Part shown: positions 42,319 through 64,000 of the stretch, one piece after another | How the letters are laid out: every line of letters begins with the position of its first letter | Numbering within the stretch: position 1 is the first letter of the stretch | From: an uncultured delta proteobacterium | Lineage (GTDB): Bacteria > Desulfobacterota > Syntrophia > Syntrophales > Smithellaceae | NCBI GenBank assembly: GCA_963710995.1 | Contig: CAVQCU010000212.1 | Location: forward strand, 32,084-96,083 | DNA: 64,000 nt | Direction: 5' to 3' | The notes under the pieces: model-generated | What the model was told of the DNA's origin: nothing | Database searches by the model: none | Seen by the model: the letters and a program-made list of their open reading frames with translations, nothing else | Made by a program: the position numbers and the translations under genes

Positions 42319-42591
42319 ATGACCATCCCGCGTGAGTAGTTTGCTTAACGCAAACTAATTTTTATTTGACTGCGTATCGGTTTGTCAACGACCCGAACGA
42401 CCAATGACAGGCGAATAATTTCTCACCAATCCGTCGTGGATTGAATTTTTTTTTGATAAGAACTTGCTTTTATGGGAAAGGAGTATAGGAAAAATATTCC
42501 TGTATGTCAAAGGAATATTGCAGGCTTCAAAGCATGGGATGCGATCGCAATGTTTATCAGCAGCCATTCACCCCTTGACAATGAATATCTC

Positions 42592-45451: not shown

Positions 45452-45570
45452 AAAAGAAGTATATGTATCCCGATCAGGTATGTCAATTAAATATTAAACA
45501 CAAAATGCGATGTGTGGTGTCTATCTTGGTCATAGGACTTAAATTGTATTTATCGTGAAAACCTGAACTT

Positions 45571-50912: not shown

Positions 50913-51058
50913 TTTTTGGTCCTCCGTTAGAACAAGTATATCCCTTTGCAGTATTTTTTAGTTAAAATTTGCTTTCGTTAAGGTGAAGCATAGGAAAAAA
51001 TATATTGTCTGTCAATGAAATTCGGTGTTTCATTCCCTATTTTATATCCAAGATTTTC

Positions 51059-51087
51059 TTGACATACAGGATCGATTTTCTTATAGT
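51059..51087 (+). promoter_or_regulatory. P5 promoter cassette copy 1 (TTGACA-17-TATAGT)
   Basis: The -35, spacer length, -10 and ~30-nt downstream leader are conserved with copies at 59221 and 62626. Confidence 0.7.
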
Positions 51088-51135
51088 TCGAGCATAAAGA
51101 AGTAATATCTTATCAAAATAAGGAGGGTGCTTGAG

Positions 51136-51627
51136 ATGGCGAATTTAAGCAAAGACCGACTGATTTTTGGAGTGTTCTTGATTATTGTAGTGGCACTGGG
51201 AGAGATCATTTTAGGGCAATTAAAATATCCAGCCTGGCCGGCCTTTATGGTCATGATATTTTTCTTTGAAGCGCATATGGACATCAAGAAGGCCCCCCAC
51301 ATTCTGGTGGGAGGTTTGTTCGGCATCGCAAATATAATCCTTATCAAGATATTTCTGGGAGCTGCGGCTGCCTCTATGGGACTGGAACTAGCGATGTTGG
51401 TGTATGTTGTCGTTTTTGTGTACCTGATTGTAGCTCTCGGGGAAGTAGTGCCCGTAATTTTTAATAACTACGCATTCATGTACTTTTTGGTAGCGGGCGT
51501 GGCCGCCAAAGGCCCGGCACCCAATGTATTCGTCTGGATGGGGGTGGAAGTCGTAGGTGGAGCAATATTCATTGCCGCCATATTGGGTATTATGAAAATA
51601 ATGGGCTTCCTGGCAACAAAAAAATAA
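51136..51627 (+). CDS. Hypothetical integral membrane protein
   Basis: Five TM segments. ATG at 51136 has an AAGGAGG SD at 9 nt. The track start at 51127 is a GTG inside the SD. Confidence 0.6.
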   Translation: MANLSKDRLIFGVFLIIVVALGEIILGQLKYPAWPAFMVMIFFFEAHMDIKKAPHILVGGLFGIANIILIKIFLGAAAASMGLELAMLVYVVVFVYLIVALGEVVPVIFNNYAFMYFLVAGVAAKGPAPNVFVWMGVEVVGGAIFIAAILGIMKIMGFLATKK

Positions 51628-59098: not shown

Positions 59099-59220
59099 GA
59101 TTTCCCACTCCTTGTTTTTTATTGTATGTAAATTGAATAAAACAATCAATTAATATTCTGAATAATAATTAAATGCCAACTCCTTTTGGCAAATAAACAG
59201 ACCATGTGGGCAAGATTTTC

Positions 59221-59249
59221 TTGACATACAAGACTGAGTTTCCTATAGT
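59221..59249 (+). promoter_or_regulatory. P5 promoter cassette copy 2 (TTGACA-17-TATAGT, leader module duplicated)
   Basis: Same -35/-10 as the other copies. The downstream TTCAACCATAAAAGAGCAATACCTTACCAA is repeated in tandem. Confidence 0.7.
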
Positions 59250-59485
59250 TCAACCATAAAAGAGCAATACCTTACCAATGTTCAACCATGAAAAAGTAAT
59301 ACCTTATCAATTATTAGTTTTCTGACAAGCATGGTAGACTCTGGCTGTCCTTGAAAAAGGATTATTACTTATAGTATTATAGATTTTTCTCGAAAAGTAT
59401 AATTAAATCGATTGATGAAATTGATAAAAATGGAACAGGAATTTCAACTATAATTATTTGTCAAAACCAATTGGGAAGGGAACCT

Positions 59486-61244: not shown

Positions 61245-62426
61245 ATGAAAATAAAAATATCTACAGCTTTATTTCTTGTCCTTTGCTTACTCTTTCTAAT
61301 CTCCGTTATAGAAAAGGAGGTAGGAGCGACTGAACCGCAACCGAAACAATTTCATTCTTATCTCCGACAGGGAATTGACAAAGCTTTTAATCTGGACACA
61401 GCCAGCGCTAATGTCTATCTAAAAAAGGCTGTGGAACTTGATCCCGAAAATCCCACCGGATATGCTTACATGGCGGTGCTTAGTTTGTTTTCCTACGAGA
61501 TAAGCTTTGAATCGAAGGATAGAGACACGAATCAAGAGGCCTTGCTAAGTTACGTCAAAGAAACCATCACCAAGGGAGAAAAAAGAATTGAGTATAATCC
61601 TCACGATAGTCAGGCTTACTTTGCCATGGCATTGGCGAAAATCTCCAAAATTCAATGGGCGATTCATCAAAAGCATTATTTAATTATCGCGCAGGAAACA
61701 TCGAATATATGGGATTATCTGGAAAAAGCTAAGGCGGGGGATCCACAAAATCATGATGTATATTTTCTCATGGGTCTGCTGCATTATCACCTCGATCATC
61801 TCTCCGGCATTACCCGCTTCTTGTCTTCGGCTTTTGTTACTTCCGGAAACAGTCAAAAAGGTATTCAGGAACTGGATTTGGCGGCGCAAAAAGGCGACCT
61901 GCTCAAGGAACTTGCTCAGGTCGAACTTTCTTCGAATTATTTGAATTTTGAAAAACAATCGGCAAGGGCTTTGCCCCTTGTCTGGGAATTAAATAAAAGA
62001 TTTCCCAATAATTATAATTTTTTATTTGCGATGGGAAACGCTTTTTCCGACCTTCATCGATTCGAGGAAGCTTTTGATATAGCCAGGAAGATTGAAAATA
62101 ATATTCAGGCAGGCATTCCTCCCTTTGTTCCCCAACTCCAACCTCGTTATAATCAATTAATGGGGAGAATCCTTTTCAGCCAAGGAGAATATGACCTATC
62201 CATGGAATATTTCCAAAATGCTTTAAAGGATACATCATTTTATAATGCCCGGGTTCGAGTCCGGGCATTTGTGCGTCTGGGGATGATTAACGACATTCGC
62301 AAAAAAAGGAAGCAGGCTGAAGAGTATTACTCCAAGGCATTGGAAGTAGAAGGTGGAGAAGGCGCCGCTCAGATAGAAGCCAGAAATTATCTTAATAATC
62401 CCTACGTGCCCCCGGCTAAATTTTAA
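61245..62426 (+). CDS. TPR-repeat protein with signal peptide
   Basis: Signal-like N-terminus and repeated A..Y...A/L TPR-type patterns. Confidence 0.7.
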   Translation: MKIKISTALFLVLCLLFLISVIEKEVGATEPQPKQFHSYLRQGIDKAFNLDTASANVYLKKAVELDPENPTGYAYMAVLSLFSYEISFESKDRDTNQEALLSYVKETITKGEKRIEYNPHDSQAYFAMALAKISKIQWAIHQKHYLIIAQETSNIWDYLEKAKAGDPQNHDVYFLMGLLHYHLDHLSGITRFLSSAFVTSGNSQKGIQELDLAAQKGDLLKELAQVELSSNYLNFEKQSARALPLVWELNKRFPNNYNFLFAMGNAFSDLHRFEEAFDIARKIENNIQAGIPPFVPQLQPRYNQLMGRILFSQGEYDLSMEYFQNALKDTSFYNARVRVRAFVRLGMINDIRKKRKQAEEYYSKALEVEGGEGAAQIEARNYLNNPYVPPAKF

Positions 62427-62491: not shown

Positions 62492-62616
62492 ATACCAATT
62501 CTAAATCAAAGATGATATTGAGGCGGCTAGGCGGAGGCAACGAGGCGTATTATACATGCGTTGAGGAAGCCGACAACGACGCCAACAAAAATAGCGCTTT
62601 GATTTAGAATTGGTAT
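62492..62616. repeat. PAL-2 element, full-length copy with perfect 20-bp terminal inverted repeats
   Basis: ATACCAATTCTAAATCAAAG (62492-62511) and CTTTGATTTAGAATTGGTAT (62597-62616). Confidence 0.9.
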
Positions 62617-62625
62617 AAGATTTCT

Positions 62626-62654
62626 TTGACATACAAGATTGAATTTCCTATAGT
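62626..62654 (+). promoter_or_regulatory. P5 promoter cassette copy 3 (TTGACA-17-TATAGT)
   Basis: Identical hexamers and spacing; leader TTCAACCTTGAAAAAGCAATACATTATCAA. Confidence 0.7.
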
Positions 62655-62704
62655 TCAACCTTGAAAAAGCAATACATTATCAAGAATATTGTAGACTGAA
62701 GATC

Positions 62705-63645: not shown

Positions 63646-64000
63646 ATGAAAAAATATGTCATTTTGATAGTCGCTGTTTTAATTCAAATCTGTATAGGCG
63701 TTGGTTATTCCTGGAGCACCTTTGTCCCCGCTTTAAAACAGACCTTTGGTCTTTCTATTACCCAGACACAGACAATTTTTGGCATCGGTTCACTTATATA
63801 ATTACGTTGTTTATTTTTGTCGGAGGCCGCATTCAGGATCGTCTGGGGCCGCGAATTCCTGTTGTAGTCGGCGGTATTATCCTGGGCAGCAGTTATATGT
63901 TGGCTGGATGTTCCAACGGATCATATCTCACCCTGCTTTTACTTATCGGCGTCTGCGCCGCCATTGGTGTGGGGCTCTGCTATATCTGCCCCATCGCCTG
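63646..64000 (+). CDS. MFS transporter (oxalate/formate-antiporter-like), frame change near 63794-63800, 3' end beyond window
   Basis: MKKYVILIVAVLIQICIGVGYSWSTF... stops at 63799. The -1 frame continues YIITLFIFVGGRIQDRLGPR..., and restoring one T in the TT run joins them. Confidence 0.7.

Follow-up and report, generated by a model that had tools for sequence, protein, structure and literature searches.

A recurrent 69-nucleotide module of predicted promoter and leader upstream of unrelated genes in Smithella and other Desulfobacterota

Similar upstream sequences before non-homologous genes of one genome were described as putative mobile promoters (PMPs) by Matus-Garcia, Nijveen and van Passel in 2012 (PMC3575422). 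Some PMP families are common to genera and up to phyla, no mobile element is attached to them, and their function and spread are given as unknown; most families are pairs of about 92% identity that lie from -150 to -50 of the start codon, usually without a -10 box (PMC3575422). Here we describe a module of 69 nucleotides (nt), made of a consensus sigma-70-type promoter sequence and a short leader, that stands before unrelated genes in an uncultured delta proteobacterium of the family Smithellaceae. Six copies lie in the stretch of DNA analysed, 64,000 nt of contig CAVQCU010000212.1 (C212:32084-96083), which we call the window.

PMPs are the closest described concept, and the module is like them in lacking an attached mobile element and in standing before unrelated genes. 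To count as PMPs, sequences before non-homologous genes of one genome should share 80% identity or more across 50 nt or more; among the copies in the window, numbered below, copies 2 and 3 share 84% over 69 nt and copies 1 and 2 share 81%, and the protease, UbiA and membrane protein genes behind them are unrelated. Compared with PMPs, the module has more than 100 copies per genome with a mean identity of 55%, is older, and has a phylum-level spread; it also includes the -10 box and a position-locked element predicted to be transcribed, with evidence of purifying selection.

Correia elements of Neisseria and ERIC/REPIN-type repeats are short, abundant intergenic repeats able to supply promoters (PMC3575422). 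These repeats have terminal inverted repeats and target duplications and lie in either orientation, whereas the module has neither feature and 90% of its copies are directed at genes. Integron cassette arrays resemble the module in having repeats at the joints of self-expressed units that vary from one related genome to the next; unlike them, it has no attC-like palindrome or link to an integrase, and it is the promoter of a unit, not a demonstrable recombination site. In the lambdoid late promoter PR', a Q-binding element lies between the -35 and -10 boxes and the first transcribed bases hold a sigma-dependent pause element, a layout like that of the module, with its consensus hexamers, its spacer motif beside the -35 box and its predicted early-transcribed element at fixed distance. 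The module is not phage-borne, no Q-like gene was found, none having been searched for, and the likeness is one of possible working, not of membership; the only candidate for a Q-type pause element (A at 2, T at 6) is TATCAA, which has A at 6. The RpoS-type -10 element of E. coli stationary-phase promoters is CTATACT, and the commonest -10 box of the module is likewise TATACT, often preceded by C (TATACT 55, TATAGT 26, TATATT 13 and TATAAT 11 among about 130 copies); in contrast to RpoS promoters, the module has a full-consensus -35 box and lacks the TAA discriminator. Because a second sigma factor with region 1.2 is encoded in cassette-free genomes too, no link is shown.

Full-text literature searches returned nothing on the motif or on Smithella or Syntrophus promoters. 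We suggest that the module represents a lineage-wide, reusable class of sigma-70 promoter with a position-locked early-transcribed element and a putative common input; judging from sequence comparison, we put the probability of this reading at roughly 55%.

A module of fixed layout before unrelated genes

The initial annotation of the window reported three sites with TTGACA, a 17-nt spacer, TATAGT and a common leader, the leader being doubled in tandem in the middle site. All of this is present as claimed; positions are those of the window, and index numbers used below count the first T of TTGACA as 0, the module spanning index -10 to +58.

51049-51117, + strand: copy 1 of the module, matching the nhmmer-type family profile at E=4e-20
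51059-51064 and 51082-51087, + strand: -35 box TTGACA and -10 box TATAGT of copy 1, with TACAGGA in the spacer
about 51094-51097, + strand: predicted transcription start of copy 1, from consensus spacing
51109-51116, + strand: leader core CTTATCAA of copy 1
51120-51126, + strand: Shine-Dalgarno (SD) sequence AAGGAGG of copy 1
59211-59279, + strand: copy 2, with the first leader unit, core CTTACCAA at 59271-59278
59221-59226 and 59244-59249, + strand: -35 box TTGACA and -10 box TATAGT of copy 2, spacer with TACAAGA
59281-59312, + strand: second, tandem 32-nt leader unit of copy 2 (TTCAACCATGAAAAAGTAATACCTTATCAATT), core CTTATCAA at 59303-59310
62616-62684, + strand: copy 3, leader core ATTATCAA at 62676-62683
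62626-62631 and 62649-62654, + strand: -35 box TTGACA and -10 box TATAGT of copy 3, spacer with TACAAGA

In each of these copies the spacer starts with TACA(A/G)GA, a consensus scan gives a promoter score of 11/12, and the leader ends in CTTATCAA or a one-base variant that starts exactly 21 nt past TATAGT; the tandem leader of copy 2 has a period of 32 nt. A 35-nt degenerate pattern from the -35 box to slightly beyond the -10 box, TTGACATACARGA-N5-TTTCYTATAGTTCRANC, matches copies 1, 2 and 3 only at 0 mismatches, and 100 dinucleotide shuffles gave no match to it, even at 3 mismatches.

Iterative nhmmer searches, started from a profile of the first fuzzy matches, converged at 146 copies in the genome (assembly of 3.53 Mb, 248 contigs, 43.6% G+C), 139 of them with a 17-nt spacer. 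The cassette and its unrelated genes, as first described, are borne out by this genome-wide search, while a set of three members is not; within the window itself the three copies noted are real and three further members on the minus strand had been missed. Sites chosen by hexamers only (TTGAC[AT]-N16-18-TA[TC]ANT) number 183, with spacers of 17 nt in 151, 16 nt in 18 and 18 nt in 14, and 103 of the 183 carry a TACAAGA-like extension.

The copies are placed as promoters would be. Of 136 copies, 119 fall outside long open reading frames (ORFs), compared with 102 of 500 points placed at random; from predicted start to start codon of a same-strand ORF the median distance is 68 nt; and 114 of 127 copies (90%, p=2.5e-21) point toward the 5' end of the next ORF, which answers the concern, raised with the initial annotation, that random orientation would mark a plain repeat. 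Consensus-like hexamers, a 17-nt spacer and gene-directed placement are, at the level of sequence, the features of a sigma-70 promoter. The genes served are diverse, in agreement with the original description of a promoter-type cassette before unrelated genes: 123 downstream proteins of this genome fall into 95 clusters, and 260 from many genomes fall into 216, with no gene family preferred. Twenty sampled downstream proteins include DUF1499, SPOR, ankyrin, GGDEF, radical SAM, ABC-2, GNAT, NTP transferase and CMD families, and several match no Pfam family; functionally coherent targets kept across genomes, as in a classical regulon, are not found among these diverse families and clusters.

The module has the following layout:

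index -10 to -1: CAAnATTTCC
index 0 to 5: TTGACA, the -35 box
index 6 to 12: TACAAGA, adjoining the -35 box, then cc
index 16 to 18: free
index 19 to 22: TTCC
index 23 to 28: TATA(C/G)T, the -10 box
index 29 to 37: about 9 bases, G-poor and pyrimidine-rich
index 39 to 46: AAAAAG.AA, then .. before TCTTATCAAA
index 49 to 58: TCTTATCAAA, the 3' end of the module

The core TCTTATCAA is placed exactly 21 nt after the -10 box. Among 327 similar pairs of copies before non-paralogous genes, 138 lose their likeness at index 57-59 and 92 at -10/-11, and from these two edges we take the unit to be 69 nt, near the earlier estimate of about 70. Only some copies carry longer modular repeats and, at about -23 to -11, the additional upstream motif CCACATTTTGTGG. 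On standard spacing, 7-10 nt after the -10 box, transcription would start at about index 35-38, the leader would form the first 22 nt or so of the RNA, and the core would fall at about +13 to +22. We also considered a palindromic operator at the -35 box (TCTTG-N5-CAAGA); it is perfect in some copies, including copies 1-3, and the family does not keep it.

About 56 copies are preceded by a modular composite repeat (contigs C13, C56, C59, C242 and others), in the order ...CTTCCTGTAA, about 50 nt, TTTCAATCnGTAAT, the optional blocks AAACACAATTCACGCC and CGACGACAAACATCGACAC..CACC, and TCACATTTTGTGGCC. Copies are not clustered in islands, with 26-52 per Mb in every contig size class; in genome G006 there were 9 gaps below 5 kb against 6.3 expected (p=0.14). 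An enrichment before accessory genes is likewise not shown, as orthologues were found for 37% of cassette genes and 48% of random ones (p=0.47). An assembly artefact at contig ends was rejected: of the 146 copies, only 7 come within 300 nt of a contig end.

Spread and conservation of the extra motifs

The family extends into many lineages of related sulfate reducers and syntrophs. Searched with a sequence-only covariance model, 28 of 31 relatives carry it. Each of the 18 same-genus genomes has from 24 to at least 115 matches, scoring being capped at 139 candidates; genomes from other families of the order have 0-35, and three same-order genomes (G022, G024, G027) are cassette-free. Of 121 genomes taken from across the phylum, 19 match at E<=1e-6; where a family was sampled repeatedly its genomes mostly agree in carriage, and one family (f19) is split, one genome with and one without. 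The promoter part, as TTGACA-NN-CAA-N12-TATANT, is matched 104 times in 20 distant genomes from other families, and 0 times in reversed form as a control. Across 185,579 species, each represented by a single genome, a scan for TTGACAYACAA-N12-TATANT-N19-23-CTTATCAA, with a chance expectation estimated well below one, gave at least 118 loci, which among the matches listed are almost all in metagenome-assembled genomes (MAGs) of Desulfobacterota; the record titles of those listed name Smithella, Smithellaceae, Syntrophaceae, Syntrophales, Desulfatiglandales, Desulfobacterales, Thermodesulfobacteriota and unclassified "delta proteobacterium" MAGs. Three short contigs binned as Chlamydiae, Bacteroidales and Eubacteriales (L116, L171, L180) have full Smithella-type cassettes, L116 being orthologous to contig C221 of genome G000; these contigs are probably misbinned in public MAGs. 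One match in Intestinibacter looks like the start of an S-adenosylmethionine (SAM) riboswitch and was set aside as a chance match.

Within the family alignment, columns of zero information adjoin columns of 1-2 bits, and unconstrained positions are therefore saturated. At sites defined by their hexamers, without use of the leader, CTTATCAA with at most one mismatch stands at exactly index 50 in 55 of 150, against 7 matches in total in an upstream control stretch of the same size; 24 sites from distant genomes, again chosen without the leader, have the core in 14, mostly at index 50. The gap of 21 nt between the -10 box and the core is held in 67 of 80 cross-taxon copies (84%). Because this distance is held while the bases between are free, position relative to the polymerase or to the RNA 5' end appears to matter.

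Mismatch rates per site across 18 orthologous gene pairs, about 11 of them independent as some pairs repeat the same genome, were as follows:

-35 box: 0.00
-10 box: 0.05
TACAAGA: 0.12
leader core: 0.12
index 29-40: 0.44
index 59-65: 0.41
index -25 to -11: 0.45

TACAAGA and the leader core thus change about 3.5 times more slowly than adjoining bases. The alignments indicate that TACAAGA and TCTTATCAA are kept by selection and not only by shared ancestry, and the module has at index 50 (TCTTATCAA) what a regulon would require, a selected cis-motif at a fixed promoter position.

In two same-genus genomes the promoters of the rRNA operons show good hexamers and neither TACAAGA nor the leader, and in G025, of the same order, there is no full cassette before the 16S gene, only a degenerate leader-like run (AAAAAGACAAGTTCTTTTCAG). 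No tRNA gene of 39 has a copy within 300 nt upstream. These observations bear on the idea that the motifs are simply the look of every strong primary-sigma promoter in the lineage, reflecting a preference of RNA polymerase. The usual footprint of the polymerase in E. coli open complexes is about -56 to +22, and the conserved block, about -56 to +22, matches it; 108 of 152 near-consensus TTGACA-17-TATAnT sites also have at least one extra part. Such a preference is nevertheless very improbable, given rRNA and tRNA genes without the module and three same-order genomes without any copy. Because the two motifs are under selection and the rRNA promoters lack them, they most probably mark a class of promoters with a shared input. 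In the rRNA operons of G006 and G002 (L236, L237), 2-3 tandem promoter-like sites, for example TTGACACAATCGTGAAGAGAGGGTAGATA, lie 160-330 nt before the 16S gene and are kept between both genomes, without the family motifs.

A plain duplication of strong promoters could also have carried the two motifs along, either through ancestry or as a generic good context for initiation, mRNA stability or translation, with no dedicated factor or common regulation. We consider this unlikely. It would suit the loose coupling and individual dispensability of the extra parts, an A-rich and unstructured leader that resembles a generic good 5' end, the SD sequence that directly follows the leader in about one third of copies, the want of a reader among NusG paralogues and the second sigma factor, and the look of copies 1-3 as recent local copies. 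It is harder to reconcile with motifs that are kept where unconstrained columns are saturated, with a leader core about 3.5 times slower than its flanks at orthologous genes, with the locked 21-nt distance, with retention of the same motifs in other families of the phylum, and with strong rRNA promoters, in two same-genus genomes, that lack both motifs. Nor does the leader look like a site for pairing with 16S rRNA, a candidate we rejected: the 11-mer core has no complementary site with one mismatch allowed, and the 8-mer core has single one-mismatch sites at differing places in three genomes.

Gain, loss and probable local copying

The cassette comes and goes between related genomes. Ten cassette genes of G006 have a clear orthologue in G000; the cassette is kept at six and absent at four, where homology begins near the ribosome-binding site or start codon. 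The gene for the UbiA-family prenyltransferase behind copy 3 is found in 8 of 18 same-genus genomes: it has a cassette in G000 (two paralogues) and G006, and in G004, G007, G010 and G017 it has none and follows another gene, homology to these cassette-less orthologues starting at AATATTGTAGACTGAAGATCATG, directly after the leader core. Where the cassette is lacking, here and at three G006/G000 orthologue pairs, the upstream context differs altogether. At one orthologous gene in three genomes the module is common from index -10 onward, and upstream of it stand the CCACATTTTGTGG motif, the end of a GC-rich hairpin, or unrelated DNA.

Such presence and absence before orthologous genes, together with the many copies, their sharp 5' and 3' edges, the tandem partial duplications and a genome rich in elements like miniature inverted-repeat transposable elements (MITEs), one of them adjoining copy 3, might point to a non-autonomous transposable element of the MITE or Correia type, with an outward promoter and a transposase acting in trans. 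We judge this improbable. No terminal inverted repeats were found, only a weak, gapped likeness by eye, and there is no mutual information between the left end (index 0-13) and the right end (index 47-58). Neither a target-site duplication nor an empty site with identical flanks was seen at the UbiA locus or the three G006/G000 pairs, and the different context of cassette-less genes speaks for gene relocation and not for an empty site; the hallmarks of MITE or Correia-like elements, inverted ends and target duplications with empty sites, are absent. The 90% gene-directed orientation also argues against this alternative, as does the mosaic of saturated and conserved columns, which indicates old copies under selection. 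Phage and plasmid collections gave no BLAST match and 2.9 million viral contigs gave 1, and this near-absence rules out carriage of the module by phages or plasmids. Because there are no inverted repeats, no covariation of the ends and no empty site, recombination at the module edges, through promoter capture or gene relocation, would fit better than transposition. The initial suggestion of a mobile promoter cassette holds for its presence and absence between genomes, and is not supported for a transposing element, as terminal inverted repeats, covariation of the ends and target duplication were looked for and not found.

Copies 1-3 are mutually nearest relatives at 81-84% identity (family mean 55%, 99th percentile 77%), which suggests local copying inside one 12-kb stretch. 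Around them, and on the minus strand, the window has the following features:

51136-51627, + strand: gene after copy 1, a multi-pass membrane protein of 163 amino acids (aa), with paralogues behind other cassettes (contig C15)
59486-61069, + strand: gene after copy 2, a Deg/HtrA-like protease with Trypsin_2 and PDZ_3 (Pfam)
61245-62426, + strand: TPR protein (Pfam), next after the protease gene
62492-62616, no strand: PAL-2, a MITE-like element of 125 bp whose 20-nt inverted ends (62492-62511 and 62597-62616) are perfect, flanked on either side by TAA
62705-63568, + strand: gene after copy 3, a UbiA-family prenyltransferase (Pfam)
50957-51025, - strand: copy 4, with TTGACA at 51015-51010, -10 box TATGCT at 50992-50987 and a degenerate leader
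45458-45496, - strand: copy 5, promoter part only, CATTTTGTG...TAATATTTAA, with TTGACA at 45486-45481 and TATACT at 45463-45458
42452-42520, - strand: copy 6, with a full leader (AAAAGCAAGTTCTTATCAAAAA), -35 box at 42510-42505 and -10 box TATACT at 42487-42482

Pfam agrees with the earlier assignments of a Deg-like protease and a TPR protein after copy 2 and of UbiA after copy 3; the identity of the partial ORF at 63746 as an MFS transporter was not confirmed. The membrane protein at 51136 matches no Pfam family, and the protease gene has no orthologue at E<=1e-40 among 30 relatives. Copy 4 serves a 79-aa ORF (50912-50673) and a DUF5683/TM2 ORF (50652-50227), and it lies divergently, back to back, with copy 1 (50987-51087), the two -35 boxes being 43 nt apart with one common upstream region. 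Copy 5 has an ATG 6 nt past its -10 box, so is without a leader, and may give a leaderless mRNA; the ORF behind it reads MIELNAVTKRYGSLAAVDNVS... and resembles an ABC-type ATPase. Copy 6 stands upstream of a 119-aa ORF (42318-41959, - strand) with a weak Palm_thioest/hydrolase match, which may be a truncated gene. The IS110 element of the window was rejected as a source of the cassette, as its outward TTGACA is without family features.

A full PAL-2 adjoining copy 3 had been noted at the outset, and the 125-bp element with its perfect inverted ends is there. Its insertion point is 9-10 nt upstream of the copy 3 -35 box, and it split off the upstream part of that copy: if the element is read across, CATTTTGAAATTAAGATTTCTTTGACA, which normally forms the upstream part of the cassette, is restored, and with it CATTTTGAAATTAAGATTTC.

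Partial and broken copies occur elsewhere. The leader, or the -10 box with the leader, is duplicated in tandem also in L050 (G074), L032 (G076), L038 (G138) and L037 (G148); examples from distant genomes are TATACTCCCACCACGAAAAAGGAAGTTCTTATCAATCCCCA repeated twice and CTTATCAATCAATTCTTATCAA. At C114:10066-10140 the leader is fused directly to the -35 box (TTCCTTGACTAGCTCTCAAAAGTAAGTTCTTATCAA), and at C58:25109-25168 a PAL-2-type element is inserted directly after the -10 box. On C242 (- strand, about 4990) a leader-only copy (ATGAACAAGCAAGGACTTATCAAAATT) precedes a paralogue of a cassette-served gene; unrelated sequence replaces its promoter part, with the break at the predicted start site.

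A possible common input

We propose that primary-sigma RNA polymerase would bind the consensus -35 box, 17-nt spacer and -10 box of the module and start 7-10 nt past the -10 box, placing the core TCTTATCAA at a fixed +13 to +22. A putative factor, or a step of the polymerase itself, could then act on the promoter DNA or on the first 20 nt or so of the transcript, at the change from initiation to elongation. The module would be a portable expression unit for any following gene, inherited with some genes, while recombination at its two sharp edges would elsewhere add, remove or swap it.

The initial annotation offered, as one option, a small regulon of three loci with a shared operator or leader RNA. 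That copies 1-3 are unusually alike, and that an ATG falls at the predicted start in some class-A leaders, might be taken to favour a local three-locus regulon with a structured leader RNA, riboswitch or leader peptide. We can hardly credit it, with about 146 copies per genome spread over many genera and several families, and with no common gene function. The leader is A-rich and unstructured, folding with a mean minimum free energy of -1.3 kcal/mol (z = -0.05); it has no Rfam match at E<=1 and no covariation, the top mutual-information pairs all being neighbouring columns with none at long range, and a common structured leader RNA is not supported. A leader peptide was rejected as well: the ATG is confined to part of class A and missing from most copies, and a TAA often ends the frame, as it does in the AAGTAA variants, among them the second unit of copy 2.

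What may survive of the original proposal is an operator or early-transcript signal common to the copies, on the scale of the genome and not of three loci; we favour this possibility. Because of the locked distance, we favour in particular a DNA-level or nascent-RNA-level signal that would act around promoter escape; a 5'-terminal mRNA tag for stability or translation is also possible. A stronger and more tentative version, which we think unlikely, is that Syntrophales, Desulfatiglandales and Desulfobacterales have an undescribed global control in which a dedicated factor reads TACAAGA together with TCTTATCAA at +13 to +22. The factor may be a repressor that bridges the two sites, a protein associated with sigma, or a Q-like loader at promoter escape. 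If true, this would place more than 100 unrelated transcription units of each genome under one factor, and a newly captured gene would be wired into global control at once, the module being portable.

Several points weigh against a promoter class with a common input. No candidate reader emerged among NusG paralogues and the second sigma factor. A loading site of the ops/RfaH kind was rejected, as the number of NusG paralogues does not follow cassette counts: G006 has more than 100 cassettes and one NusG, and the cassette-free G022, G024 and G027 have two. The second region-1.2 sigma factor (about 285 aa) occurs in every genome of the order, those without cassettes included. Neither TACAAGA nor TCTTATCAA is palindromic. 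The parts co-occur loosely (odds ratio of spacer motif with leader 2.8; all four parts in 5 of 152 sites), and each is therefore dispensable. Selection might simply end at the sharp edges, which would then not be recombination joints, and the mismatch rates come from about 11 independent orthologous pairs.

If our reading of a reusable promoter class holds, about one in ten Smithella transcription units would start from the same 69-nt module. Smithella bacteria are key syntrophic degraders of alkanes and fatty acids and are known almost only from MAGs; for such genomes, which come without transcript maps, the module would provide a simple sequence rule for promoters and 5' ends. It would also be a large natural case of promoter reuse, with gain and loss measurable at orthologous genes, and a candidate strong promoter for genetic tools in Desulfobacterota.

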